DNA of 64,000 nucleotides, from NCBI GenBank assembly GCA_051294905.1, contig CM119371.1, positions 20,276,001 through 20,340,000 on the forward strand, written 5' to 3'. Below are positions 2,676 to 64,000 of the stretch, in pieces. The position numbers and the translations under genes are program-made. This DNA is from Botryllus schlosseri. Its lineage: Eukaryota. Within the stretch, counting starts at the first letter, position 1, and each line of letters starts with the position of its first letter. The notes under the pieces were generated by a model, which saw only the letters and a program-made list of their open reading frames with translations, ran no database searches and was not told the DNA's origin.

Positions 2676-3187
2676 ATTTAATCAGACCGGATGCACCAAT
2701 TCCATCCCAAATTTCTTTGTGATATATAAGTCAGCGAGGTAGGTTGCCTAATCATCGAAGACGCCACGTAATCTATATGCAAGGTTATTTGAGAATCACA
2801 GCAAATGCTCATGGCATGTCCCACTAGCGTTACAACGTACTGCTAGCAGTAATATGGAGATATCATCTACAAAATTCATTGTCCCATCAGAATATATACA
2901 TAGAAATACAATTTTACATTGCGACGATCAAGGGCTTTTTCGGCAGCGGGTCTAACGTCCGATTCCTCCGCCAACGTGTGGGTCATACTCATTAGCCTCA
3001 TCGGCCACCATCAGGGTGTCCAATTGACACTGTTCATCTTTTGTCGAAGATAATCAGATTTAATGAAGTTACAATTAACCTTGGAGGCAGGCATCGCCTG
3101 TCGTCACTGCGAGACAAGCTACATATTTTGTATTACAACCATCCGTTTGTCAAATACATGTATTGCGTGGTGATCATCCGAGCAAAG

Positions 3188-3753
3188 GACGCGTCAACGT
3201 TAATGTTCCGCCATTGCAAGTCGATCTGGAATGGACAATACCAAAGTACTGACCAGGGAGCAACGTATCGAAAATACCAGCCTAACATCGACAAGACAAT
3301 TCCAAGACAAGCATCGAGAAGAAGTGAATCCACGCTATTTCGGTTACGAACGGGACACTGCGGATTGAATGGACATCTCCACAGAATAGGGGTGTCTGCG
3401 ACACCTTTGTGTGCCCATTGTGGAGTCATCGAAGACGTGCGCCATTTTTTGATGGATTGTCCGACACTAGAACAACACAGACAAATACTAAGAAACAGTG
3501 CACATCGAAAGAGAATACCGTTCGACTTGGAAAACTTATTGACAGACACCAATATATTACAACACGTAATCGACTTTGTGGCATCATCGAGACGCCGCAT
3601 ATAATTATTGACATTTGACTTTCGACTGAGAGTATCATGTACTGAATTTGCAAGTTAGCTTGTGTTAGTGATGAAATTTGTTGTCATGTGGTGCAAAAGA
3701 CCACGTTGTTATAAGCACCATAACATGCTTTTATTAATAAATAATAATAATAA
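3188..3753 (+). mobile_element. 5'-truncated non-LTR retrotransposon (LINE): ORF2 C-terminal CCHC region, 3' UTR and (TAA)n tail
   Basis: Translation TLFRLRTGHCGLNGHLHRIG...CAHCGVIEDVRHFLMDCP matches the RLRTGH + CCHC C-terminus typical of I-group-like LINE ORF2; TAATAA tail; 12-bp TSD ATCCGAGCAAAG (3176-3187, 3754-3765). Confidence 0.9.
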
Positions 3754-40170: not shown

Positions 40171-43100
40171 GGGTGTTTTTGTCGCCAACAACTACTCTCT
40201 GAATAAATGCCAGGAATTGAAATTCCTTTGGGTACGAAACATCCCAGGCATAATAACATGCCATCATATCGATTAAAATATCGAACACCGTTGCGCCATC
40301 GTTACCACAAGGGACGGATTCCCCAACAGCTAAGATCCAGCCTTGAATGGACCCATCCTGATGTCTTGCGACAACTAGATGTGGAGGATCATGCTTCTGA
40401 CTCCTGGTCTCTATGTCGTGAGCCTGAAACAGACATATATTCAAGTCCTTACATACGAATTTTTGTTACCGCTTCCATAAAAATCTGAAGTCATCAGGTA
40501 AGGACATCCATAATATACATCAGTTAGGTTAGTCTTTCCTGCCTAATAATATTAGCATCACATATCAATGAAAGTGGCAATTATGTATTATTATGTACCT
40601 GTTGGACTAGTAAAGCAGTTAAACCGCTTTTTTGTCGACGGTTAATTCTTGCATCGGTAAGCTCTGACTGTAGTTTCAGCAGTTTGGTGAGCTCATCCTT
40701 GTCACCTTCAGTGGACTGATGAAATGAAATGGTGAAATAATTCTTACTAATTGTGGAGCACACTAAATTTGCAAGCCCAAATTTACCTGAAATATTACAT
40801 CCAATATATTTATCATATTTTGATAACTGCTTTTCATGTCTTCAATGGTGGTTGGTGCAATTATCTTCTTGAATTCTTCCCTGATCTGAGAAGAAAAGCA
40901 AATTCATAACAAACACTGATAGAAATGGTTGATAACATTAGACGAGGAGCGGCCAGCCTTTTTTGCTATTCACGACCGCGTTTCGATCTCCTATGTAGCC
41001 CACGGCTGCATTTCAGTGCATAGTTATAATGAACTATCTTCACACCAAATGCCCACGTTGAACTTTCCATGGTATATTTACAGTGAGTTATGGACAAAAC
41101 CTTGTCGCCATGACGTCTTACTCGACGGATCGAAATCAGGAGTAGTCGTGCAGATATGAATAACTATAGTGGGATTGATGTTGCAGTTTAACATATTACT
41201 ATCAAATATGTAAGCAGATATGGTAGGCCGTGGCTATGGCTGCCACGATCTATTACGCAACAAATGCGTTACGCTCACATCAAAGACTAAAATCAATGAA
41301 TGAGTTTGCAATCGCAGAGAAAAACCAGCAGACTTTTATTTGTGCATGTTAGCATTATCTCTATAGCAGACTTGCGAACTGAACAGTCCCAGTTGTCTGA
41401 TTTTTCTAATATATATGCAAGAAGGCGTTGTATTGCTCGTACACACGTGCAATTGCCAATAAAATATACGCAAGAGTTTACTTGATGACTTGAAATTGAC
41501 TCGGAAAGTTTGCTCAAAGTCACGAGTCAATACACATTTTATGAAGCGCTGAGTCAAGTCATTTTGCTCATTGACTTACTACAAGTCAAGCCACGTCAAA
41601 AAGTTGACTCATGTCAAGAGATGACTCGAGTCAAGCAACAGTGTGTGTTATAAGAACTATAAAGTGATTATATTATGGTTCCATGATATAATAACCACAC
41701 TCACCAGTTTGATATCAGTCAAGGAAGGGAACAGATCAAGTATTTCCGACAGGGTAATGTCTTTTTGAATTATCTTGGAACGTCGATGTCCATAGAGGTG
41801 GTTGAAAAGAGAGACAACTTTTTTCCAATCGCGATTGACATTCAAAAATTCACTTCGAAGCTGGAGAGAAGCTTCTTCAGCATTTAGAGTGGATCCACCT
41901 AAAATCGCAAATTTGAAGAATTCACCAAAAACATTGAAACTTGTACCTTGTAAACCATACCTGAAGTCACAAGCGAAGTATTGCTTTTGCCCCGAGGAGC
42001 AGTGCGATTTTTCAGAAGTCTAAGTGTTCTCAGTTTCTGGGACAACTTCTTGTTAAAATTACGCTAGAAAGCAAATGAAAATATGATTGAAAATAAATAT
42101 AGGAAATAACAACGAAGATTTGACTTTACCCAAGGTGGATGTTGCAAAGTTGATCCTAGACATGGATACTTTTCGATAAGTGCTTTTCCAAATTTCGAAT
42201 ACGCCGACTTTCCAGTCATGTCACCACTTCTGAGGATGTGATAGGCACACTCTTGTACAACTAGATGTATGACTTCATATGCAGCTCGTGCCTCGAGCGC
42301 CCGTCGCACTGTGTCACTGAATTCGGGTAAAGGCATCCCATGAATTTGTTCAGAGTGATTGCCGCTAGATGACGCCTGCGATATTACTATAAACAGGATT
42401 GTGTCAACTACATTTATTTGGACATATTACCCCTTCGTCCACACTTGTATCAGGCAGTGTATCTGGCACGGACAGATTGGTCATCGTTTCTTCCTCGTCT
42501 TTGCTGGTTGATAAGGACTTCTGAAGTATACAGTTGCTATGGGTAGTTGCAAAATATGACCAAATAAATTCATACCCGTTTCACAGCTGCGCCAGATGCT
42601 ACACCCTCAACGAATGGCTCTGCTATGGGCCAAGTGGTATCCGACGCTTCTGCCAGTGATTGTGCATCAACGTCGACAGATTCCTTCGGAGGGATGGTGG
42701 TATACGGCTCGGGTGATGAGACAGAAGCATCACACGGATTTTCTGAAGCCCCGGTCAACATCCTTTTCCATAACTGAAATATCAAAATCAACTTGCATAC
42801 ACACATTCAGCAGCAAATGAATTGCTTCTACCTCTTGTAATTTCAGTAGACGACGTGTAGTACCTATATTGAATAACTGCCACAGATCTTTGTCGACGAC
42901 TTCGGTGAAAACATCCGAGTCTATATCATTATCTGAAAAATAATTGACGTCAAGTCGCAAACAGAACTGAATATGGCGATAGACTGAAACCCAACAACTA
43001 CAAACACCAAACATGCCCAACATTCCTAGTCATCACAAACCGCTGCGTGTTAATATTTTGACTGATTTGAGGCCACGGAAAATCATGATCAGAAATACAG

Positions 43101-46100
43101 CACAATCCGTGACTACTGCCATCTTCAACAGCAAATGAATTCATAGCAGACTCGAAATAACAAATTACTAATTTATGGTAGTTGCAAAAAAGACGATTAT
43201 TCATGTATAACAGTTCATCAATGCATATAAAATCTGGAAAACCATCATCTTGAAAGCTGTCAACTAGGATATCACCTACGTTGTATGCGATGTTTTTGTG
43301 CAAAACTCGTGTAGCAGTAACAACACACGTGTCCAATTGACAATTCTCAAACTCTGTTATTTCCGGATAATCTGCAACTGGTGCAGTGGTTTTGTCAGCA
43401 AAAACAGTTTCGTCCTTCAAAAAGTTGATTTTTCTCACACCGTTATTATCAATCATTTTCGTACACATCCACTTCTGGTGATGAAAACTGAGACTCAGGG
43501 GAAGATTTTTGAAATTAAACCACCTTTTTTGTTTAAAAAATCCATTCTTAGCCTCATATCTCATACAATTATGAAAACCAAGGGGACCAAACGCCAACAA
43601 TTGCCATGACATGTGTACAAGAAAATGCATTTTGGGAGTAAATGACAAAGTTGCATACAATCGCTTAAATTCTTCATTGTGGATAGCTATCAAGCAAGTT
43701 AGGTCATACGCCACATTGGGTGAACTGACAAAAGAAAATGACACCTGCACAATTTTAAGCAGTCGAACTAAATTCATCCAGTATAAATTCTCATCAGTCA
43801 TAGACGGACCAATAATGAATGGTAGGGTATGCAATAGTACGAACATACTTGCAGCAGTCTGGGGCAGATTTGAGCTTGGCTGCAAATGCTTTCGTTCAAT
43901 AATCTGTGGCTTATCTTTCATAAAGTTATCGCTGTACTCAAAATTCTGTAATTGATGATTCAAGTGAGATAATGATAATGACCCAACGTCTATATGATGC
44001 AATAAAAATGCCTTGAGCTCCATTTTCACAATGCCTTCTAGGAGTAGATGCATTGGATCCAGCAGTACTCCCTTGGTGACATCAAAATAAGGAATGTCAC
44101 TCAGGAAAGTTCTATTGTTTATGCCTAATTGTTGAGAGAGTTCGGATCGTTCAGCATTTCTGGGACAGCGCCGCAGGGCTTCTAGTCGCTCATTATGTTG
44201 CTCTTTCGAGCGAATAGGACAGTTCTCATGAGCATTGTATTCAGCCATTTCTTGCTTGTGCACATCACAAGTCCGACAAGGTTTATCGGCCCCACCAACA
44301 CCTTCTTTGAATCCAGCCAACTGCTGTGCAGCAGGTGTATCCGCAATACAAAACAACAAAAAACCATGAATCAACTGCTTGGAGCCATTTATAGTCAGAA
44401 TTACTCCTTCAGACAACAATTTTATGGCATTTACAAAATCTTGCAAAATAGCATTGTGGCCAGAAAATGCTTTCAGGTCAACAGACTTTGCGAGGCACAG
44501 TAGTTGCATGCTTTCTAGTTTGCTACGGCAATGGTTTGGGATATTCAACAACGACCAATAATATGCAGTTATTTTGTGTTTTTTTCTGTGCGCTCCAATC
44601 GGATTAACTATTTCAAATTCATCACAATATAGTGCAAACAAAAGACAGTCTGGATAACGAACAATGCCCTCGTGAGTTTTGATAAATTTACCTTGCCACA
44701 CATCTTTCATTACATCAAACTTGTGATGCGCAACATATGGGGACATTTGAACAATTTCTGTGCCACTTAGTACGGCTAACAACTGCTTCAGAAAAGGCAC
44801 AAAGTATCCAGTGGCAGGTTTTTTCACAATACGGTAATTCCTGCCATATCTTTTATTTATCGTTCGAGAACCTAGCACCACCGTTTCCGGATTGACGAGA
44901 TTGAAATGCTCTTGGTAAAACGTTTGCCGGGATTCTTTGGTTTCCAAGCAAGAGAATATATTTATAGGATCCAGAAGTGATGCACCTCCAATCGAATTGC
45001 TTGGTAAAAAATTTTGGTAATTTGCTAATGCAGCATCCAGCATAGATCCATTGGAAGTTAAAATATCTGCCACCCCAGCATCGGAAAGTTTATGAATAGT
45101 GTTCAATCTCAGCAAAAGTGCAGCTTGAGGTAATACCAGAGTCATGGGGAAAGTGACGACAGGACTTTCAATCAGCGGTAATGGAAGATCACATTCCATA
45201 CCTTCTGATGAAGAATCTAATGCAGTTACTCCATCGACGAGGTCATTCAAATCAATTTCAGCCTGTCCGTTATGATGTGTCCTACAGTGATTTTTGAACC
45301 GATTATGATTTTCAAATCTTTTCCGACAAACCGTGCAATTCAAGATCAAACTTGGATGATCGTTGTGGCGCTTCAGCAAGTGTTTTCCAAGCTCATCTGG
45401 ACTACCAAAAAATGAGCACAGCCGACAGTATTGTAGACGTGACATTATATGAGGAACTTGAGATCGGTACAGTATTATTTCTGCATTAATAGCATATATC
45501 TGTAAAATTTATATTAATGATTACAATTGGTATTAACATTCAACCCCACCCCAGATGCATAAAAATGAAATGAGTGTATAGAGATGTTTCACACGTCAAT
45601 CAGGAGAAATATCAAAGCACACGAACACATCATCACTGCCAACTATACATCATGATGTAGCCTACAACGGTAATGTGAAGAAACAATAATGAGGATCAAT
45701 AATTTATATTCTGCTCACTAACAATTTGCACAAAACATATCCATGGGGAACACTGATTCTTGCTGATCAAGCAATCATGTATCGATGTTTGCAATGGACC
45801 AGACAACGTAATAACAGAGAATTTACTAGTGGAATTAAACTCTTCTATCAAGGATAGTCATCGGAGGATGAGAATAAAATGATCACTGGCGACTCAATTA
45901 TCACGTATACTACACAGGCTTTGCAGATATATACACTTTTCTAAGGTTCAGTTGTTTGCCAATCAACACTACGTCTACACCGCATGTTCAGGGGGAACAC
46001 GAATCGGGTAAGGTCATGCTTAAAACCTCTCGATGTCTAAATATGACATCAACCACCTAGACCACATCGTTTCAGTCTTCAGTACTTCATAATTAAGCAA

Positions 46101-50600: not shown

Positions 50601-51331
50601 GTTGTTCCGATGTCGTGGTAGAACATCTCCCCTTGCTAATCAACAAGATGATGGGGAAATATATCAAGATGACTGAACAGGAAGTGAACTTTTATGCTCA
50701 TGTGTGTTCCAAGTTTTTGATATGCAGATACGAATTTTTGGATCATCTGTTTGTAGTTGGGTGCTTTGTGATCATCTAAAAAGTTTTATTTACTACATCT
50801 TAGGAGAATTTACATGCTGTGAACTCCCAATGTGAAATTGGAATCTTTCATCGGTATTCGAATATACCAGATACCAGATTTAAGCTTCTCGTTTGATAAG
50901 GTTACTAGGTATACCCACTTTAGCCACTCATACGTAAATATACTTTTGTTTTGGGGATCGAGAATAGGGGGGGTTACAAAAACGAATATAAGGGGCAATG
51001 AATAACGCCTAGCACAAAGCAAATATCAAGCTGAATACACCGGTCCCAAAATAAGTCTACTGTGGGCCACTAAATATCTCAATTTTAAATAGAAAAGTGC
51101 TGGATAACGCAAGCATATTTTAATTACTCAGCATTGCATCGAAGACCGCATGTCTGACATACCTCATACAGTAATAGTATATATCGTAATACAAAGGTCA
51201 ACTTTAACTTTGTGTGTAATTGTCACTGAGGAATATACCGAAAAAAATTCGTACAAAAATAAAAACCTACATATCAGAACGAATAATTATTGATTCAAAA
51301 CTTCCGCGCATTTCCGACTTCTTATACAAGT

Positions 51332-52604
51332 CAGTGTTGGGATGACTCGAGTACACTTTTTCAGATGACTTGACTTGACTCGAGTCCCGTTGCTAAAATG
51401 ACCTGACTTGACTTGAGTTGACTCGGCGTTTCAAAAATGTGACCCGAAGCCAAATTCTCGAATCAATTTCAAGTCATCAAGAAATAGATATTGACTAACT
51501 TGCTATGCATGAACTTCAATTTTCTCGACGCGCTGATATGGCATGTATGCGCAACGAGTCATGAACAATTGCGCAGACTGGTTTTACTGAGCCTCCGACG
51601 GTATGTCACAAATGAATGGACCTCAAACGAAGTGATTAGAGCAGTGGTTCTCAAACCTTTTTAGACTAGCCCTTTATGAAAGTGAACAATTTCGCGCCCC
51701 TCTTATCGTCACATCAGAAAATGCCACCAGATTACTGGCAATCATAACGGATAGTTTGGTGGTGGCATGGATGGTTATGACTGTTAGTGTGAGAATTCTT
51801 AAATATGAAATTCGGACTGTACACAGAGCAATACCTATGAATTCGAGATAAAGCGCGCCGAGCGCGAATTTTTTTTCCAGTTGACCGCAGGTTTGCGCCC
51901 CCCTTCAGATGCTTTGACGCCCCCAGGGAGGGCGCACCGTCACTTTGACAACCACTGGATTAGAGCTTACTGTCATAGACTAGTAGTACTCCATCTATAG
52001 CAGGGTGTTTTCGTTGTACAAAGAGTTCTCAGTGCTCACACTAAAGAACCTCTTATATGATTTAAATCGGACTGACATACTGTGGTTCATAGATTTGAAT
52101 GACTCGTCAACAGTTGGTGCAGGGTTGCAGTGTATCGTATGGATTCTTGGGTGAGTGTGTTGGATATTGCATCGTATCAATTTGTTCCTACTTTCTAAAG
52201 TTCCATGTCCTATCACCTATGGCTGACAGGTACCGACGCAATGTAGCTGTTCTACGTATACGTCAGTCCTACAAAGTCTGTTGAAGGTATAATTATACCT
52301 GTTGGATATTCATTTCTCGATTTAGAATTATTAGCGACTCAACATGTACTTCAATCATCTTGCAAAATGCAATGACTTGCATCAAGTCTCGTACTTCGAA
52401 AATTCGATATGACTTTGTGACTTGACTGGTGACTTGACTCGATTTGACTTGACTTGTCTTGACTCAGCCACCTCCAAAAATATAGTGACTTGACTTGACT
52501 TGAGTCACCTTAAAAAATCGAATGACTTGACTTGACTCGATTCAAAATGTGCAATGACTCGATATGACTAGTGACTAGCAGCTAGAGGCTTGATCCCGGC
52601 ACCG
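51332..52604 (-). mobile_element. CAGTGTTGGG-family hAT MITE with nested MITE 51642-51957
   Basis: Left end CAGTGTTGGGATGACTCGAG; GACTTGACTCG arrays; nested CAGTGGTTCTCAAA...ACCACTG element with perfect TSD GATTAGAG. Confidence 0.8.
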
Positions 52605-53030
52605 ACACGTGTAGATTAACCACGCAACTCACATGCAACATGAACTGTCCGGTTATCAAAAATAGCTTGAATAAAACGACCCAATGCGATGTTGGGAAGA
52701 AAAAAGGATAACATGTCAGCGGATGTATCATCGACATATCGCGTGACTATACGTATTACTTGAATACGATGCAAGGTTTATACACGGGATACACGGGAAA
52801 AAAGGACAATTACTAAGTATACCTTCCGTTTAGTATGTCGGAAGAAGTCAGCGTGAAGTACATGTTTTGGTCAGCTCGCACGCATCAAACTTAACATGAG
52901 CACTTGAACGAGACAACAATCATATCGCGTTACTTTACCCACCCACAAGTCAACTCAACCAGACCTAGAGCAAAGCGATACCACGGGCTTGGCACATGAT
53001 TCCAAGTGACTTTTTATCAATTGATTATAA

Positions 53031-53360
53031 CAGAGGCGGGCAACTTAGGCCCGTGACGGGATTATGTGCGGCCCGCCGACAGATTTTACCATGAAAGAGA
53101 AATTCAAACCTGAACAATGGACAAATTTTTTGCGTCACTGAATGAATCCGAATTTGCCTATCTGACAAAGATCGCCTTAAAACTACTTGTTCTGTATGGT
53201 CTGCATACATTCGCGAGCAAATATTTCCGATCATGAACATTAACATGACAAAGCGGCGTCCCAATCGAAGTGATGTATACGGTGCAGTCTTTACTAAGGT
53301 TTTCTGCGTCCGACATGGAGCCAGAGTTAAAAGAACTTGTTGAAAACTTTGATCGACCAC
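53031..53360 (+). pseudogene. Buster/Charlie-type hAT transposase C-terminal (dimerisation domain) remnant
   Basis: Frameshifted EFAYLTKIALKLLVL..SAYIREQIFPIMNINMTKRR resembles the FGSTYxCEQxFSxM hATC motif; preceded by a CAGAGGCGGGCAAC hAT-like end. Confidence 0.55.
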
Positions 53361-53704
53361 ATTGACTTCACGAGTTATTGAAGTATTACGTTCATACATT
53401 CATTATATACTGTTTGGTCTCTATTCTTTAAACTTAAAATTTACATTAAATACGACTTGTATAGGAAGATATATACGCGAATAATATATCATGTAGCCTA
53501 ATGCATAATGCTCAAAGAAAAGGATAAACGAAAAAATATTTTATTCAATGTCCTCATTTGGATTTATATTCTCTATTGTCCTCTGCTCGTCCAATCTCTT
53601 TTTTACAAGATTGAAATGGACACTGTATCAGCAAAACTAAATACGTCACTCACTAACATCGAACTTAAATGGTTGATAACATCATTCAGACTGTGCAAAA
53701 TCTA

Positions 53705-53870
53705 GCGGCGAGATAGCGTAGTGGTGTGATCCACAGGTGCGACACCGGCGACGCCAATGGGTAGCGGGTTCGAGTTCGGCCGAGGTGGACTCCAGAAATC
53801 GTATCTCAGTGTTGAAGGTTTATCTAGGCTCCTACTCGCCTCGTGATTCCCATGAGCAAAGGGGTGCAAG
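53705..53870 (+). mobile_element. tRNA-derived SINE, family 1, 5' part
   Basis: GCGGCGAGATAGCGTAGTGG...GGTTCGAGTTC; similar to the heads of 19178-19450 and 31890-32165. Confidence 0.7.
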
Positions 53871-55206
53871 TAGTGCAGTGATGAAGAAACCAAAATCTGA
53901 TAAAGTCGAAAAATTCGGCATGTTTTTTGCGGTAATTCAATCCATATCTGAACGCTTCATCCACATGTCATGCCCTTCGTTTACGTTTCCCTTTGTATTT
54001 GCCGATATTTAGAATAGCTAATTCCATTAATGATAATCTTGGTTAGAGAGAATCAGTATCACAGAGTACAACAACACTTGTGCAGGTGTGCTCCATCACA
54101 GATTCCCTGTAAATTACCAATTGAATTTCTTTTTCGTGACTCCTATGGTCATTGACATCATCGCCTTGGGCAATTTGTCTAATTTAAGCGACTCCCACTT
54201 TTACTGTCTCATTTCGATGTGACATTTTTCTTTAAAATCTTCATAACATGAAAATCGTTTGAAAATAAGAAGAATGACAGAAATGGGAAAGGAGCTTCAT
54301 AAACTCAGTGAAGACATGAATTAAGTTGAGTCCTTGGCTGGGAGAGATAAAAGAAGCGTGGCTATTGATTTAAGAATCAGCAATCGTTGGCTTGTAAATA
54401 GTTGGACCGTAAAGAATGTGCCAGAGTCCCAGAATTCCACGAACTTCATTGGTAGTTTACATTGCTGCAGCTGTCCAGTATTGTTGTTTCTATTGTAACT
54501 TCCATTTGAATAGCTATTGTTGATAAATGACCCTGTTACGATTGCCCCGCGGCATGGGGCAATCGTAACGCTTCGGGAAAATTTAAAACCAAATATTTTT
54601 ATGATGAAATATTAAATCGAGTTCCGTGTTTGCTTCTATACCACATATTCGGTGGTCGATATCGATAAGTAATGAGTTGAAAAGAACATTTCCAGGAAAC
54701 GCCGATATTTCAATGAAAATGTGAACATCGTTACAATATTCCCAGGTCTCCACCACTAATTCTGTGCTATCATCAATGAACATGTTCCACATGTTCCATC
54801 AGGGGGGATTCTCTCATTGGAAGCATGTCATAAGGATCTGGAACTGTTTTGTATAAAACACGCATCATTCCACTTGCGCAGCATCGCATCGCAGGTCGCA
54901 TCCATTTCAACGCGGACAAGCCGCCTTCGACCATTTTGCCCGGTTAAATATAGTTCAATATCTGGAATCTCATGTATATTTTGCAGTATTCATACGTGTT
55001 CTGAGTCGAGACTATCAATAAACTATGTCTGCTGGGATTTTATTCGTATACTATATCCGGAGCTGTCTATCTTTGCAACATACATTGTGTGTTATGAGAG
55101 GACGGAAAGACTACTTCAGTTGGTTTATGTTTGATGACTTCTCCAATACCAATAAGGCGAAAATATCATCACCGAAGAAGCACGTGCATAGAGTATTACC
55201 TTGGAT

Positions 55207-56138
55207 CAGTGTTGGGATCAAGTCACTACCTTCGAGTCACGAGTCATTTCGAGTCATTGCACATTTTGACTCGAGTCAAGTCAAGTCAATCGGTTTTCGA
55301 AGGTGACTCGAGTCAAGTCAAGTCACTCGATTTTTGGAGGTGACTCGAGTCAAGTCGAGTCAAGTCAAGTCAAGTCACGAGTCAAGTCAAAATTCAAGTC
55401 AAGTTGCCTTTTCGTAGTATGAGGCATGATTACGTCATTACATTTTGCTAGTTGTCTGAAATACAGATTGAGTGGTCATTGATTTTGAACCGATGAACGA
55501 ATATCGAGTTGAATATACACCCAAGAAGGCGCTGTATCGCTCACACATACGTAGTCTCAGTTTATAGTTACCGACAGAAATAGAGAATAGAGAAACGAAT
55601 TGGTAAGATGCAATACATTACCCTTTACTCATTTACATATTGATATGATACAATTCGAGCCTGCGCCAATGGTTGAGGAGTATATAAGATATATTCGAAT
55701 TCAAAATCAATAAAACAAGAGGTTTGGTTAAGGTAGCCTATATAATTTTCTATTATATTACTTTACTGCTAGTTTACTACAACAATAAGCTGTAAGGTTC
55801 GATCATTTCGTTTGTGGTCAATTTATTTGTGAGAGAACAATGGAGGCTCAGTAAAACGCACGATCATTGAATGATTGTTCGCTCTCACGGGTTACACCAT
55901 TGTTTCGCGAACATTCCGAACATATGCAGGTTACAGTGATTTTTATCGACACCGATTAATTGATGACTTGAAATTGACTCGTGAATTTTGCTCCGAGTCA
56001 CGAGTCAATCTACATTTCTGATACGCCGAGTCAAGTCAAGTCAAGTCATTTTAGCAAAGTGACTCGAGTCAAGTCAAGTGAAAAAGGTGACTCGAGTCTG
56101 ACTCGAGTCAAGTCATGACTCGAGTCATCCCAACACTG
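55207..56138 (+). mobile_element. Intact hAT MITE (CAGTGTTGGG family, GACTCGAGTCAAGT arrays)
   Basis: TIRs CAGTGTTGGGAT / ATCCCAACACTG; perfect TSD CCTTGGAT (55199-55206, 56139-56146). Confidence 0.93.
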
Positions 56139-58034
56139 CCTTGGATACGTTTGATATGAGTTTCAAGTTGAAAATGTAATGTGATTTTTGTCTCTCAGAA
56201 CTTCTCACTTGAAATCGTATGCCCAGTGAGATCATCACTTGACGCTTAGCGGGATTTGTCCACCTCTATCAAGATTCAGCATTTAACACACAGTTCATAA
56301 TCTTGATCGCTTTATTTTATAGAAAGCAACTTCACATGAAAAATTATGGACGTGCAAGACTGTTTGGGGGAAGATACAGAGAAATTAAATTCCAAACCTC
56401 AAGCGTACAGACGACAGCAATTTGACACCGAATCCCATAGACTGTGTTTCAAGCACTATATTGTTTTGTAAATAATGAGGATGCTACTCGTATGAGTCTT
56501 CGATGAACCAGAAAGCAATATAGTTGACGATATTCTAATCATAGCAAACATATGTCTCAAGGCATTAACAAACAGGGAAAAGTGCGTAAACCTAATCAGC
56601 CGTATTAATATTCCGGAGAATATCAAAATGACAGTACAGTCTAGCTTACGTCTAGTATATATACATATATAGCCATTGGACACATTACAAAAGCGCTGCA
56701 ATGTCATATATGACAGGTGCTCGTGCTCAGAAACGAGTTACTTCCACTCTATCAGAGTGCTCAGTGCTCACGTATGTTTGACCAATTACACTGCCTACTC
56801 AAGTGATTTTGTTATTGACGAATTCCACTTTCCCATCAATGGTCAGCTGACGTTAACTACTTGTCAATTCTTCAACTTTACCAATGAAGAAGGTAGAATT
56901 TGGGAGTGATTGAGCTACAAATTTCAGGGAAATTCTCAAAAATAACTGACCTCTCACGATAACAGTGTACCAGTTTAAAATAGTTCACCAAAAAACGGCG
57001 CCATCATTTATTCATTACCAGTCACAAAAACGCCCAACAAAAGTTGATAGCCTTTCCCAAGGATTGACTGGAATAAGTCTGCAAGGATCCTAATACTTCT
57101 AACTAATTATTCAATTTTCAATTATTTTGTAGCTTCGTAGCCTATACGTTTTTACTTCCACTTCGCGTAATTTATGCATGGATTGGACATCGCTATAATT
57201 CTACTTCTAGCTTATTGCTAGTCACGTGACAGTACTTTTACTTCGACTTGTATAGCCGTTTAACCTGCTAAAAAACCCGATATGTAATAAAATTACTGTG
57301 ATGACGTTTGATAATTCTTACCACCGATATACTTCCATAATGATGAGACACCAAAAGCAAAACATATAGCGCATACTAATTTAATATTTCTGGCTTATTC
57401 CATTGCGCCAAAACCAATATACATTGAAGATATCCATTACAATGAACCAAAGCAAAATATGTTCCAAAAATGACGGATTTAGTTACGTTGGTCTTTCAAG
57501 GACATACGGAGATACGCGATCTTCGGAGGCTTCCGTCTTGACTCAATCAAATTCTGCCGAAAAAGCTGATATGTAATTACATCCAACAGCATGATTTAAT
57601 ACAGTGCTTTTCAACCTGTTTGAGCGTCATCCGGGATTTTTTAGCACGTAATATTTCATCCGCACAGATGAACCGCAAATTGGTATACCAAAAGAAAATT
57701 AAGACACTTAATAATATTTTATTCAGGTGTGCAAGTGGGCTACTGATTTAGGCCATCGAGTGTCTCACTAAAAAGACAACAATTTCCCTCGTTTTGATTT
57801 ATTTCAACCATAGCGCATCATTTCGACCTAATCAGTTTTTTGGTTTTATACGGGAAATTCTAGTGCTTGATAGTGATGAGCGGAGTCTGCTTTTCGAGAC
57901 TCCGAGTCCCTCCGACAACTTTGTTCTCTGAGGCAAAGTCCCTCCGACTCCGGGGATCTCAATCCCAGTCTCCGAGATAACCCGAAGAATCTTGTCCAGT
58001 CTCCAAAACCATATCGGTAGAGGTAGTTATTCAA

Positions 58035-58693: not shown

Positions 58694-59583
58694 TATATTA
58701 AAACGACGAAGGAAGACCAGTCAGTTCGAACTAACTACCACTAACACCACTGGAATCGACGATCACAGGTTTCAGTAAATTAAGTTCCGCATCGCCATGA
58801 AACAGTTGATGGAACTGCACTAAACATACATGATGCATCGTTGACGCACCGATCGACGCTCCTTGGAGTTGACTAAATGACTAGTGAGACTGACTTCCAA
58901 TTTTGAAGCTGATACATGATATCTGGAATTTGGAGTCTGAGACAGAACAGCAGCAGAAACTTGATTGCGGTGCTGTTTTTTCTTATCACATCAAAGTCAT
59001 TTCTCAATCAAACCAAACATTACATGACGAATATTCAGATGAGTTCTGGATGACTGACCACGTCAATCAATATTGGAGGAAGCGTAGTTGATGCGAGCAG
59101 AGGAAAGCAGTAGGTTGCAGTTAGTGTGGCTGTTCAGAAATTCGGAATGTTTTGTTTTTACAGGGTAAGATCAGCTTACCTTAGTGATTTATGTATTGTT
59201 GAAATCTTTAAAGCGGGCTTAGATGCTGGTATGCCTCTGAGCGGATCTTACTAGCGAAATGTCATTAAATCATTGTAACACATTGGGAGCTTGTGCACGA
59301 TCTGCCCTAAGTCAACGGTATTTCGGTCCCGGCGCTCAGGCAAAATCCGCCGTTTCATAAACGGAAAATTATTAATGGGCACACTGCTTTTTACCGGGTG
59401 GAAATTACAATAACCTGTCTGCTTTTGAAGCTGAATGGGAAATGAAGGTGTTAATATTGAATGATAGTAATTCTATAAAATCAAACGAGTGGATTTATAT
59501 AGATTGTTACGAATTAGTGATTTGAATACTTATAAATATCGATGTATGATATGATTTGCAGGCGAACTGTAACGTATCCGATA

Positions 59584-59711: not shown

Positions 59712-60641
59712 ATGAATATACAGCAATTGGCAGTGACGGGCGTTATTACTAACCTGGACTGTTGCATACAATTTATGAGAGATCATGGAGTGTTGGCGAA
59801 ATCAATGGATTGCTCTCTGTGCGGGATTACGATGAAACAGGAGGTCACCGGTGCGGTAAAGGACGGCTATCGATTTCGATGCATTAATGCAGCCTGTCGC
59901 ACTACTTCAAGCATAAGAAAAGGATCCTTCTTTTCAAAAAGTAATCTGGGATTAAAAGAGTTATTGCTCGTAACTTATTTTTGGACGACTGAAGCACCAC
60001 AGCATAGAATTGTGTCGGAAAGTGGGGTTTGCGCCAGATCGGTAATAGATTGGTGTAATTTCTTGAGAGAAATATGCTCCGAAGCACTTATGCGGGACAC
60101 AAGTCAGTTGGGTGGAGACTCAATCGTGGAAGTGGATGAAACGCTGATTTCAAGGAGACGCAGAGGTACTAATGCTTCTGGACGTTCGGTTGCTTCTGCT
60201 CAAGTCTGGCTTTTGGGAGGCATTGATAGATCCTCCAAGAAGGTATTCCTTGAAATTATACCCCCAGAATTAGGACGAACGGCTCCGGTTCTTGAAAGTT
60301 TAATTGTGAAACATGTAAAACCAGGGACAACGATCCATACTGACTGTTTTGCCTCTTATCGAAATTTAGAGCGATTGGGGCAAGGTTATCGTCATCGTAC
60401 GATAAATCACAGCTACTCCTATGTATCTCCGGAAGACCGAACATTGCATACCCAGGGGATCGAGAGCATGTGGTCCAGCTTGAAAAAGGCAATCAAACGT
60501 GGACATGGTATCCAACGAGATTTATTGGCTTCTTATTTGGATTTCTGGGTTTGGGCTCGTGAGCACCCCAGACAACGAAGATTCCTGGATTTCCTGCAAG
60601 CAATAGCTTCCAATCCGAAGTATGACGTATCAAATCTGTAG
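59712..60641 (+). CDS. Merlin/ISXO2-like (IS1595 family) DDE transposase, 309 aa, intact
   Basis: N-terminal Zn ribbon (CSLC...FRC...C), SIRKGSFF, catalytic motifs IVEVDET, WLLGGIDR, PGTTIHTDCFASY, HRTINHS, HTQGIESMW, then SYLD. Confidence 0.93.
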   Translation: MNIQQLAVTGVITNLDCCIQFMRDHGVLAKSMDCSLCGITMKQEVTGAVKDGYRFRCINAACRTTSSIRKGSFFSKSNLGLKELLLVTYFWTTEAPQHRIVSESGVCARSVIDWCNFLREICSEALMRDTSQLGGDSIVEVDETLISRRRRGTNASGRSVASAQVWLLGGIDRSSKKVFLEIIPPELGRTAPVLESLIVKHVKPGTTIHTDCFASYRNLERLGQGYRHRTINHSYSYVSPEDRTLHTQGIESMWSSLKKAIKRGHGIQRDLLASYLDFWVWAREHPRQRRFLDFLQAIASNPKYDVSNL

Positions 60642-60938
60642 GGAGTAGGAATTACTTGCATCCGATAGTTACAACGACCGGACAAAAGATAAAACAAATT
60701 ATAGGCTAGTGTAAAAAAAAAAAACGGCCCAAGAGGTTAAAGCGGTGTGATCAAATTAGTAGTGGTAAATATTTTTAGTAGAATAGGGTAGCCGGTTGGA
60801 TAAGTACTATTATCAACGGGTATATTGATTTTGTCTTTTGCAGAAAAAGGATAATTTAGGATTTCAGTTAAGGAAGCGAATGATCTTGTCTGCTGATCCA
60901 CCAATTTCCGGACCGTGGTGTACGTATTTAATATTGAT

Positions 60939-63293
60939 ATGTACAATTGGGGCTTCGCTATATCATATTGTATTGTGCTGTTGGCCTTGGAAGTCACACT
61001 TGGCCACGGTGGAGCACCTTTAAGGGATCACATTCATGGCGACCGTTCGAGAACTATTACAGATGCCAGATTTGGAAGATTAACAAGCTCAATGCCCGAG
61101 GGATGGCAGAAACTACCGAACACACGATGGGAATCGTATAATTTAAGTCACGTCTGGCAAGAAACAGGAGATGACCAGCATCGTTTTGAGAATCCTGGGA
61201 TGTTTTATTCGTCCACTTTCGGGTATGTGATAGCCGAGAAGATAAGCTACAGACAATATGCCTTTCCGCAAGGTCATTTTTGGACGGATAGCAATGAATT
61301 TGAGCGGACTTGCTTATGTGAACGTAGAATAGGGTACATTGTGCCTGGTCTTCAGTATCAGGCCCTGAAAAAGACCGTAACGTACACCCGCGAAACAGGA
61401 TCTTATCTCAGATTGCATTGGAATTGGAATATGACGGACTCTGATGTCCGGCAGTTCAATCCGGGAAATAGGTTTATAGAAGCTATGACCAAATATAAAT
61501 TGGTGCTATTAAGATTGTTCGATAATTATGCCAGTATTCGTGCATCTTGTCACGTGCAAGAAGAAAACAACAAGACCCAAGCCGATTTATACAACGTATT
61601 CAATCATTCTAAGAATGAAATTGCACATTGCTAACCAAAAAATCATGGGCATGAATGTGTCTTGTGCAGTATGGTTGGATTGGTATATGCTTTCGAACCG
61701 GCAAAACCCGACTTATTGATTATGGAAGTGGATTTCTCCAAAGGGCTCGGATATTGGGAAGGCGATACTATACCTAAGCGAAAATCGTGGTGGGATATTG
61801 GTCAAGAGCGTCGCCCGGTTGCTAATTTATGGCCAAGAGAAACTAATCAGGCATGGTGGGTAGTGCTACCAGAGCGTGTTAAATGGTTGCTTCCCCTTTA
61901 CGCATATGATAAAGTTCAAGATTTGAGAGACGGTCTTCCACGCAGGACACAGGGGTGTCTTCCGTTATATTCTGAATTTCCATCCATGACCAGAACTGAT
62001 GAAGAATGTAAAGCCCGTGTGCTGGCAAATGCCGAGCGTTGTCGTGACCCTGTCGGTGGATTAGAAATTAAATTAGCGCATTTTGATCACATTCATTACG
62101 ATACGGAAAATGGAGCTTTGAGATTTCCTGGGCCACCGCTGATGATCAAGGGTCACGGTAGGAGTGAAATGCGTGGCATACAGTCTTCCAAACGTACTAA
62201 ATCTCGAAAGAAAAGGTTCTTGTTTTTTGCATTAATAATGGTTTTTTCGTCAATTTTTACATTAACTGCCGCATCAACATTACAGAGTGAGTTTAATGCT
62301 AGGACGAAAGATCTTACTGACCAGTTGAACACTAGGTTTACATTGTTAGAGAGTGATCTTAAGGAAGTGGCCGACAAAGTTAACCAACTCGCAGCGGTAA
62401 CGGTGTCCCAGGGTCAAAATCTAAATCAAGTAATCATAGGAATGTTAGAACATGAGCGAACGCGCGACGCCCAACTTGAGGCCATTATTGCCCAAGTTCA
62501 TGAAAACAAGAATATGATAATAGCTCAAGCAGACTTGTATTTTTCTACTATTCAAACTGTGCACTCTATGACGATCGCAGAAGTGGCTGTAAATGATTTG
62601 ATTATTTCAAAGTTACAAAATAGCACGGGAAAAGCTATTTTTGATTCAACCAAAGCTTATTTAGTGCGAATTAAAAATGGACTAATACATTTGAAAGAGC
62701 ATGGCCAATTGATAACCGCGTATCAGTTGGATTATCGGAATTTTTCTAATCATCAAGGTCAAATTTTAAAGGCGGCGCGTGAAAAATTGAATGACACCAT
62801 GGCAGAGACTGAATATAGGGTTAAGGTTTACCAACAAGGGGTGAATAGCACCTTAGTTTTGAACACTACCGAGTTTAGCCACGATAACATAACCTTCATT
62901 TCCTTGAACGGCTCGATAGGAAAAGAACTATTCCAAGATATAGGATATGGCATAAAAACTGTAGCTGAGGGCACCGGCCATGTGATTAGTGAAATTTTGC
63001 AAGATACGGGAACTCTAATTAAGACAGGTGTCGATGGAGTTGGAGATATGATTGGTACCGGGCTAGGATCTATTTTTGGGGGATTAGGAAAATTTCTAAT
63101 TCCGATTGGCATAGTATTGGGTGCATTAATAATAATTTATTGTCTGATAAAATTCTCCCCAGGTTGTAAAAGTCGAAAAACTACGATAGCTGAAAGGAAT
63201 AATCATACTGAAATGGCTACTTTTGTCACAACCGTTGTACCACGCCGAAATATCGTTAAAAAAGTAGTGCGGCGATCTGAGTATAATGTATAA
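60939..63293 (+). CDS. Virus-like class I membrane-fusion (envelope) glycoprotein, about 784 codons, interrupted by one in-frame TAA (61632-61634)
   Basis: ORFs 60915-61634 and 61662-63293 share one frame. Signal peptide MYNWGFAISYCIVLLALEVTLG; Cys/Trp-rich N-terminal subunit; KSRKKR|FLFFALIMVFSSIF (furin site 62205-62216, then hydrophobic peptide); heptad helix; N-glycosylation sequons; Gly-rich membrane-proximal region; TM FLIPIGIVLGALIIIYCLI; short tail. Confidence 0.8.
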
Positions 63294-63371
63294 ATTTTGT
63301 GCGATCTTACTTATAGTTGCAAATATTTAGAAATAGACTTAACCTATACATATTGTATTGAGGATATCATT

Positions 63372-64000
63372 ATGAAGCCAAGTGTCTGTCTTAATTTCGG
63401 GATGTGTTTCGTAACATGTGCCCTGTTCGCGCGGGGTGAAAAAGATAATTGGACATTGGCTGACTTGAAGATTCAACCAATCACGAGGCTGAATTACGAC
63501 CTATGGATAAATACTACGACGCGGTTGTCGGAACGAATAGCTCTGCAAGATTTGTTCCAATTGCCGAAGCTTGAGGGATCCTTGAATTCAACAAAATGGG
63601 AATCAAGACGATATGGTATGATTTCATCGAAAAATCGTACAATTAGCGAAAATCTCCAACCCCGTGGTAAATACTGGACCGATCCTGTAGCGTTAGAGCA
63701 ACAATGTCTGTGTGTTCGATCATTGGCTTTGGTTAGGCCGAGTTTGCAATACAGTAATCTATTCAAAAATGTCACCTATCATAGGAAACCACAATCCGAT
63801 TTAAGACATATGTTAGTTTGGGCGGAAACACCTGATTCATTAAGGCGGAATAATAATTTAAATGTATATAATGGCGTTATGACAATTTATAAATTTCTGC
63901 TCATTAAGTTACTACAGCGGCATTTGGTTGTTCAGGCCTCTTGTGAAAACACTGATGAGAATGATTTGGCTGGATCCACAGATTTCCCGATGAATATATT
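63372..64000 (+). CDS. Second, paralogous glycoprotein gene (partial; open to the window end, not in the ORF track)
   Basis: 209 open codons starting MKPSVCLNFGMCFVTCALFARG (signal-like); PRGKYWTD...CLCVR...PSLQY..LFKNVTY...QASC aligns without gaps to the upstream glycoprotein (37 of 95 identical by manual count). Confidence 0.8.
   Translation, partial: MKPSVCLNFGMCFVTCALFARGEKDNWTLADLKIQPITRLNYDLWINTTTRLSERIALQDLFQLPKLEGSLNSTKWESRRYGMISSKNRTISENLQPRGKYWTDPVALEQQCLCVRSLALVRPSLQYSNLFKNVTYHRKPQSDLRHMLVWAETPDSLRRNNNLNVYNGVMTIYKFLLIKLLQRHLVVQASCENTDENDLAGSTDFPMNI

Follow-up and report, generated by a model that had tools for sequence, protein, structure and literature searches.

A second glycoprotein gene in a Merlin-transposase-linked element of Botryllus schlosseri is probably a remodelled copy of the first and may encode a non-fusogenic attachment or entry helper

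The window analyzed here is a stretch of 64,000 nt from the Botryllus schlosseri genome (GCA_051294905.1, contig CM119371.1, positions 20,276,001-20,340,000, forward strand), and all coordinates below are positions within it. Toward its right-hand side lies a Merlin-transposase-linked, virus-like mobile element. The probable left end of this element, which starts with GG and is inverted-repeat-like, was located at 59317..59332 (+) as a single match in the window with no more than three mismatches, and the sequencing runs displayed a depth step and loose ends at the same place (59322-59341). A Merlin/IS1595-like DDE transposase of 309 amino acids (aa) is encoded at 59712..60641 (+), and matches PF12762 with an E value of 2.1e-16 and a score of 60.7 bits, where the cut-off is 27. 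Directly downstream of the transposase, on the same strand, stands glycoprotein 1 (G1), followed by a spacer of 78 nt (63294..63371, +) and a second glycoprotein gene, G2, which is still open at the window end. Since no partner of the left end was present inside the window, the element should extend past G2.

Merlin transposons are characterized by GG-starting ends and a DDE_Tnp_IS1595 domain (available text of PMC8101967). The carrier resembles them in both respects, with a transposase that contains the DDE_Tnp_IS1595 domain used as the criterion for Merlin and with a GG-starting candidate left end. The words "envelope" and "viral" do not occur in the main text of that paper. Teratorn, in which piggyBac is fused to an alloherpesvirus, likewise combines virus-type genes with a cut-and-paste transposase (available text of PMC10175614); unlike the carrier studied here, Teratorn is a whole 180-kb herpesvirus. 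When relatives of the element DNA were sought in viral_contigs (three scans) and metagenome_contigs, none were found.

In this copy, G1 is divided by a single in-frame stop at 61632-61634. The front piece (60939..61634, +; 231 aa) comprises a signal peptide and the front half of the head and is 69% identical to residues 14-218 of the protein P0001. The rear piece continues in the same frame (61635..63293, +; 552 codons) and is 69% identical to residues 232-769 of P0001, which is 769 aa long, uninterrupted and the closest relative of G1. A protein search with the rear piece retrieved 30 proteins at an E value of at most 0.001, and a search with the front piece gave no match of near length. Because six relatives (P0001, P0002, P0004, P0006, P0015, and P0018) match both pieces within one polypeptide each, with E values of 1e-20 or better for the front piece, G1 was taken to be one gene that is broken in this copy. 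The stop is not among the sequencing-run differences listed (40 of 284). The initial annotation had described the frames of both glycoproteins as kept open; this does not hold for the present copy, which, with its G1 interrupted, is probably decaying.

Besides the remaining part of the head, the rear piece of G1 carries a furin-type site, a hydrophobic peptide, heptad repeats, a transmembrane (TM) helix, and a tail. According to sequence motif and hydropathy, an R-K-K-R site and a 20-residue hydrophobic, fusion-peptide-like segment occupy 62205..62276 (+), and the TM helix is found at 63093..63149 (+; hydropathy 2.86). With the signal peptide, the class I features are all present, and this anatomy suggests that G1 is a class-I-like fusogen. 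In the structural model of P0001, the head was predicted with confidence, most of residues 100-250 and 300-380 being above a pLDDT of 80, and a long helix, partly of low confidence, followed the cleavage site at residues 418-554. When this model was searched as a whole protein, no Foldseek match at an E value of 0.001 was obtained in BFVD or PDB. VIA-align reached a best Z score of 6.8 with a list of generic coiled coils and no clear fold match. In a sequence search of the PDB, the best match was haemagglutinin HA2 at an E value of 0.056, which was not significant, and Pfam and PHROGs gave no glycoprotein match at their cut-offs. Matches in the Atlas at 0.84-0.85 had low recognition and were set aside.

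Two cysteine features were used to place the family further. A CXXC motif occurs in the head of G1, P0001, P0002, P0011, and P0032, the last of which is described below. In the stem ectodomain of P0001, residues 360 to 725 are devoid of cysteine, hence no CX6CC is present, and thus P0001 is not a gamma-type Env. Envelope-type genes in invertebrate mobile elements, as G1 is, are also found in the Ty3/gypsy errantiviruses, including those of tunicates, with env genes of the F type and of the gB type, the former having a furin site and a hydrophobic fusion peptide (available text of PMC13524379). Unlike the present element, however, errantiviruses are presented there as LTR elements with one env, and searches of G1 with PDB, Pfam, Foldseek, and VIA-align (whole-protein model) yielded neither a sequence nor a fold match to F or gB.

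The G2 open reading frame (ORF), which had been noticed in the initial annotation as an unlisted frame with no stop in the window, was found as described: it begins with an ATG at 63372 and stays open to the window end (63372..64000, +), yielding the first 209 codons. The visible part covers the front half of the head domain and contains five N-glycosylation sequons. The N terminus is weakly hydrophobic, with a hydropathy peak of 1.43, and is a probable signal peptide. A block of 95 codons in G2 (63660..63944, +; residues 97-191) aligned without gaps to a block in the G1 head (61266..61550, +; residues 110-204 of the ORF 60939-61634), as obtained by BLASTP and by alignment to G2. Recounting gave exactly the 37 identities out of 95 that had earlier been counted by hand. 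Over a longer gapless stretch, BLASTP of G2 against the G1 front piece gave 41 identities in 121 positions (E = 1e-22). The local alignment score of G2 and G1 was 191, and none of 2,000 shuffled sequences equaled it (mean 30, maximum 66); chance similarity is thereby ruled out, and the paralogy passed the shuffling test that had been proposed for it. At the level of sequence, G2 is confirmed as a real ORF paralogous to G1. We also considered and rejected the possibility that the visible 209 aa are homologous to the rear piece of G1; the score was only 45, which 11 of 500 shuffles matched. A structural model of the G2 ORF in the window was too poor for use (pLDDT 43, best Z score 3.3).

The junction between G1 and G2 is present in the sequencing runs. 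One contig, possibly from the source sample, spans 63227-63491 with zero differences, and a contig from a second organism spans 63156-63625 and differs at 47 of 471 letters (about 90% alike). No RNA data set was listed as a holder, and in two RNA runs, each read to about 6%, there was no read on the G2 ORF; neither result was given weight in either direction. Upstream of the two genes, 30 nt before G1 (60745-60774) resemble 63299-63328 before G2 at 22 of 30 positions. None of 150 mononucleotide shuffles was as high (maximum 21), which is a marginal result for a comparison chosen post hoc; the two stretches may share an expression signal or preserve a trace of the duplication. A T-rich tract ending in CAG at 60826-60843, 95 nt upstream of the G1 start and with 11 pyrimidines in 15 positions, resembles an acceptor site for splicing or trans-splicing; for comparison, 14% of the YAG sites in the window have at least 10 pyrimidines. 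A weaker acceptor candidate is present before G2 at 63316.

To follow G2 beyond the window, we relied on a full-length relative. A search with a two-row alignment retrieved two proteins out of 3,563 candidates, namely, P0001 and P0032. The latter, a protein of 722 aa, shares 61% identity with the G2 ORF across all 209 residues. Both trees place the two as sisters (support 100/99-100), and P0032 was therefore taken as the full-length orthologue of G2. A single contig of 5,305 nt is the source of P0001, and likewise of P0032, and their coding lengths sum to 4,479 nt; they appear to be neighbors on one contig. A G2 protein of 722 aa would end at 65540, beyond the window, and all statements beyond G2 residue 209 rest on this one orthologue sequence, from one short-read contig. 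A length-extended search with alignment A1 for proteins longer than 2,089 aa found none.

The head of P0032 is clearly related to that of the G1 type. Residues 77-371 align with P0001 at 27% identity over 316 columns (E = 8e-27), and a profile comparison of the two proteins extends to residue 522 (probability 99.5). Seven of the eight head cysteines stand in the same columns as cysteines of G1, P0001, and P0002, and the eighth was paired by BLASTP. The stem gave 12.5 bits, with none of 500 shuffles as high, and is a weak but real remnant of a G1-type stem. A TM helix is present at residue 664 (hydropathy 2.84) and is accompanied by a basic tail; no signal-peptide peak exceeded 1.2.

The junction of head and stem is different. 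No R-x-K/R-R motif occurs anywhere in P0032, and no basic pair is present at the junction, whereas among the 29 matches examined all 16 relatives that span head and stem have such a motif there (R-x-K/R-R in 14 and K-x-K-R in 2; P0023 was excluded from the count as a tandem-repeat artefact). Instead, P0032 has a lone arginine, after which comes a short stretch that is apolar and contains proline. Hydropathy at this position is 0.85, compared with 0.77 to 3.23 in the 16 relatives, 14 of which are at 1.37 or above. P0005 (0.77) and P0007 (1.11) are similarly low and nevertheless retain their furin sites, so hydropathy alone does not prove that the fusion peptide has been lost.

In the stem of P0032, the central coiled coil is shorter by about 30 residues, leaving a heptad-like stretch at about residues 418-450. 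The second helical region of the relatives is replaced by a Ser/Thr-rich segment of low helix propensity, as judged from simple scores: Ser plus Thr amount to 34% in residues 551-600, whereas no 50-residue bin of P0001 exceeds 24%, and helix propensity is low at residues 530-590 (0.66-0.67 kcal, versus 0.36-0.53 for the corresponding stem regions of P0001 and P0002). Thus, of the furin site, heptads, and TM segment that the initial annotation had looked for downstream, the orthologue has the TM segment, lacks the furin site, and retains the heptads only as a shortened remnant. By extension, the G2 of this copy would also lack a basic cleavage motif and have a shorter coiled coil together with a Ser/Thr-rich segment.

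The lone arginine at the junction of P0032 makes cleavage by another protease possible. G2 might then also work as a fusogen, set off by a different trigger, such as a single-arginine or endosomal protease and a proline-containing internal fusion peptide, and thus have another tropism. The full-length architecture with its TM helix would suit such a protein, as would the distance from junction to TM helix (266 residues, compared with 274 to 292 in six relatives), the remaining heptad-like stretch, and the occurrence of low-hydropathy fusion peptides elsewhere in the family. However, a basic pair at the junction is found in 0 of 1 G2-type proteins versus 16 of 16 relatives, about 30 coiled-coil residues are gone, and a non-helical segment stands in place of the second long helix. 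We therefore consider a second fusogen quite unlikely. The "alternative receptor specificities" suggested in the initial annotation, in the sense of two working fusogens, are likewise the less likely reading, given that P0032 has no furin site and only a shortened remnant of the heptads.

The reading that we prefer, with a probability of about 0.5, is that G2 is an old duplicate turned into a non-fusogenic surface attachment or entry helper. Its parts differ in strength: G2 is probably non-fusogenic, as its predicted anatomy suggests, and, if so, an attachment-type role is slightly favored. In this scheme, G1 would have been duplicated, and the G2 copy would have undergone a burst of change in which protease-activated fusion was lost, after which it would have been retained by selection in a new role. 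G1 would be cut by furin and carry out membrane fusion. G2 would remain uncleaved and unable to refold into a fusion hairpin, and its conserved head would be displayed on a stalk that is flexible and glycosylated, in the same membrane as G1. The two-component entry that the initial annotation had also suggested may apply in this sense, with a fusogen and a helper that does not fuse.

The anatomy of P0032, with head and TM helix kept and no basic cleavage motif, would fit equally well with a non-fusogenic blocker or decoy that binds the G1 receptor in the producing cell and thereby brings about superinfection exclusion or limits cell fusion. Envelope genes that have lost fusion can still block entry: Fv4 and HERV-T env have kept the head and lost fusion, one of them by a change of the furin site (available text of PMC9967133). 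These examples, however, are host-captured single genes of the gamma type, with CX6CC in TM, whereas G2 is still cargo that travels in an element. In addition, furin-site mutants of MLV Env lose most of their interference (available text of PMC9967133), and a receptor shared by G1 and G2 becomes less likely because G2 has diverged far, to 27% identity in the head. A blocking role thus seems unlikely, and an attachment or entry helper is retained as the preferred role.

The age of the duplication bears on how selection can be read. Between G1 and G2, synonymous sites are saturated (pS 0.82, pN 0.48, 121 codons), and dN/dS between the two could therefore not be computed. This saturation, together with a long stem branch, bears out the old duplication that had been proposed. 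In the trees of 9 and 13 rows, the G2 branch measured 2.1 to 2.9 changes per column and the tips 0.24 to 0.36; a burst of change followed by constraint is the pattern that a change of function would predict.

Selection on the second gene, which the initial annotation had also proposed, is supported at the family level by the open 722-aa orthologue at 61% identity and by a neutral null (P = 0.003 to 0.011), in which 209 codons at similar identity remained free of stops in only 0.3% to 1.1% of 2,000 trials per setting. Between the G2 ORF and P0032, conservative replacements are not in excess of the neutral null: the fraction with a positive BLOSUM62 score is 0.32, versus 0.28 to 0.30 under that null. 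Among the 40 differences listed out of 284 in the sequencing runs, 18 fall in ORFs, 15 of these 18 are synonymous, and only one lies within G2. That G2 is a paralogue of G1 under selection is almost certain.

Between elements, the cores of the two glycoproteins have changed to a similar extent, with an identity of 69% for the G2 pair and 70% for the G1 pair, while the fronts are 53% and 72% identical, respectively. The faster-varying front of G2 could be a ligand-facing part. Divergence in step, as seen in the cores, would also be in line with G2 as a structural partner of G1, either in a mixed oligomer or as a folding chaperone, that tunes or clamps the pre-fusion state, which would be the strict form of the "two-component entry complex" proposed in the initial annotation. 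The tandem position of the genes, 78 nt apart, is compatible with such a partnership, and so are the common head fold with its conserved cysteines and the possible oligomerization of the stem remnant. However, G1-type proteins form a wide family, and only one G2-type protein (P0032) was present among the 31 proteins retrieved, so most G1 relatives may manage without G2. We regard a structural partnership as improbable.

G2 is 34% identical to G1 and no closer to it than to P0018 (35%), P0004 (34%), and P0001 (34%), and a clade of G2 with G1 and P0001 alone was rejected (p-AU 0.003), in a test that is weakened by long branches. Both results would agree with a family glycoprotein gene that was gained by recombination and is not a tandem duplicate, and the broken G1 of this copy would agree with G2 being a functionless relic. 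On the other hand, a grouping of G2 with G1, P0001, P0002, and P0011 was not rejected (p-AU 0.17, with the same weakness from long branches). An extra head cysteine is common to G2 and these same proteins only (4 of the 12 G1-type rows covering the column), which favors a duplication early in the G1/P0001/P0002/P0011 lineage. A relic is further opposed by the open 722-aa orthologue and by the 69% core identity. Acquisition by recombination or loss of all function is thus very improbable, and G2 is better regarded as an old duplicate with a helper role in attachment or entry.

Fusion-dead duplicates of fusion glycoproteins are rare but known. By analogy, G2 would work like the ephemerovirus G/GNS pair and baculovirus Ac23, as a member of neither. 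The G protein of rhabdoviruses belongs to class III. In ephemeroviruses, and also in Ngaingan hapavirus, the fusion glycoprotein gene is followed by a full-length TM paralogue that arose by duplication, and this GNS protein keeps most core cysteines and is non-structural (available text of PMC4334499, PMC7191811, and PMC7967035). The element thus shares with G/GNS a fusion glycoprotein gene directly before its own full-length paralogue with most core cysteines kept. Unlike the ephemeroviruses, which are RNA viruses, it has a G1 that is class-I-like, with furin site, N-terminal peptide, and heptads, and that is encoded in animal DNA downstream of a DDE transposase; G1 and G2 had no match to Pfam viral glycoproteins, rhabdovirus families included, at the curated cut-off.

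In Group I alphabaculoviruses, the F-like protein Ac23 is a class I homologue that has no furin site, is altered in the fusion-peptide and pre-TM regions, has lost fusion, and has been kept as an accessory envelope protein (available text of PMC4864199). Ac23 differs from G2 in being the sole F gene of the virus, next to the unrelated fusogen GP64, whereas G2 adjoins its own cleavable paralogue. Neither Baculo_F nor any other F family appeared in Pfam up to an E value of 0.5-1, and there was no Foldseek match to F at an E value of 0.001 with the whole-protein model.

In the open-access literature, we found no account of an element linked to a transposase in which a class-I-like envelope protein that can be cleaved is accompanied by its own full-length paralogue that cannot. 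What is added here is that the second glycoprotein of such an element is probably a remodelled copy of the first. A bolder reading, which we hold only tentatively and regard as less probable than not, is that of a two-protein entry machine made from one gene, with a class-I-like fusogen and its duplicate as an attachment protein on a mucin-like stalk. It would belong to a transposase-mobilized enveloped element of invertebrate chordates, with a G1 head fold that is unmatched in the libraries searched, a picture that is equally tentative. If true, the origin of the division of labor between fusogen and attachment protein would have been caught in the act. To our knowledge, the attachment and fusion proteins of known viruses are usually unrelated. 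Should G2 be an attachment factor, the two genes would be an example of a one-protein entry system dividing in two. The conservation of G2 is also an indirect sign that the surface proteins of the element were selected, which fits with cell-to-cell spread, and G1 and G2 offer a natural matched pair for locating the requirements of a fusogen.

Several minor observations concern the family and the surroundings of the element. P0006 (1,193 aa) is extended at its N terminus by a long segment that gave a weak EGF-like match (E = 0.03), and P0015 and P0013 have a second R-K-K-R within the head. The P0014 cluster is a family fragment annotated at NCBI as the uncharacterized Styela clava loci LOC120333782 and LOC120335360. 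Just left of the probable element end, 58800-59320 is a very high-copy repeat, with a summed depth of about 10,000 versus about 60 to 150 inside the element. An open frame of 836 codons at 42998-45508 (-) combines a Plavaka transposase domain (E = 2e-07) with a C2H2 zinc finger, and a 202-codon frame at 2996-3604 (+), with a weak reverse-transcriptase zinc-binding match below the cut-off (E = 8e-04), is probably a retroelement remnant. Nested long inverted repeats of TGACT/AGTCA units, which are foldback-type elements, occupy 51323-56147 and 41408-41633; in one example, the arms 52466-52605 and 55206-55345 are 86% identical.
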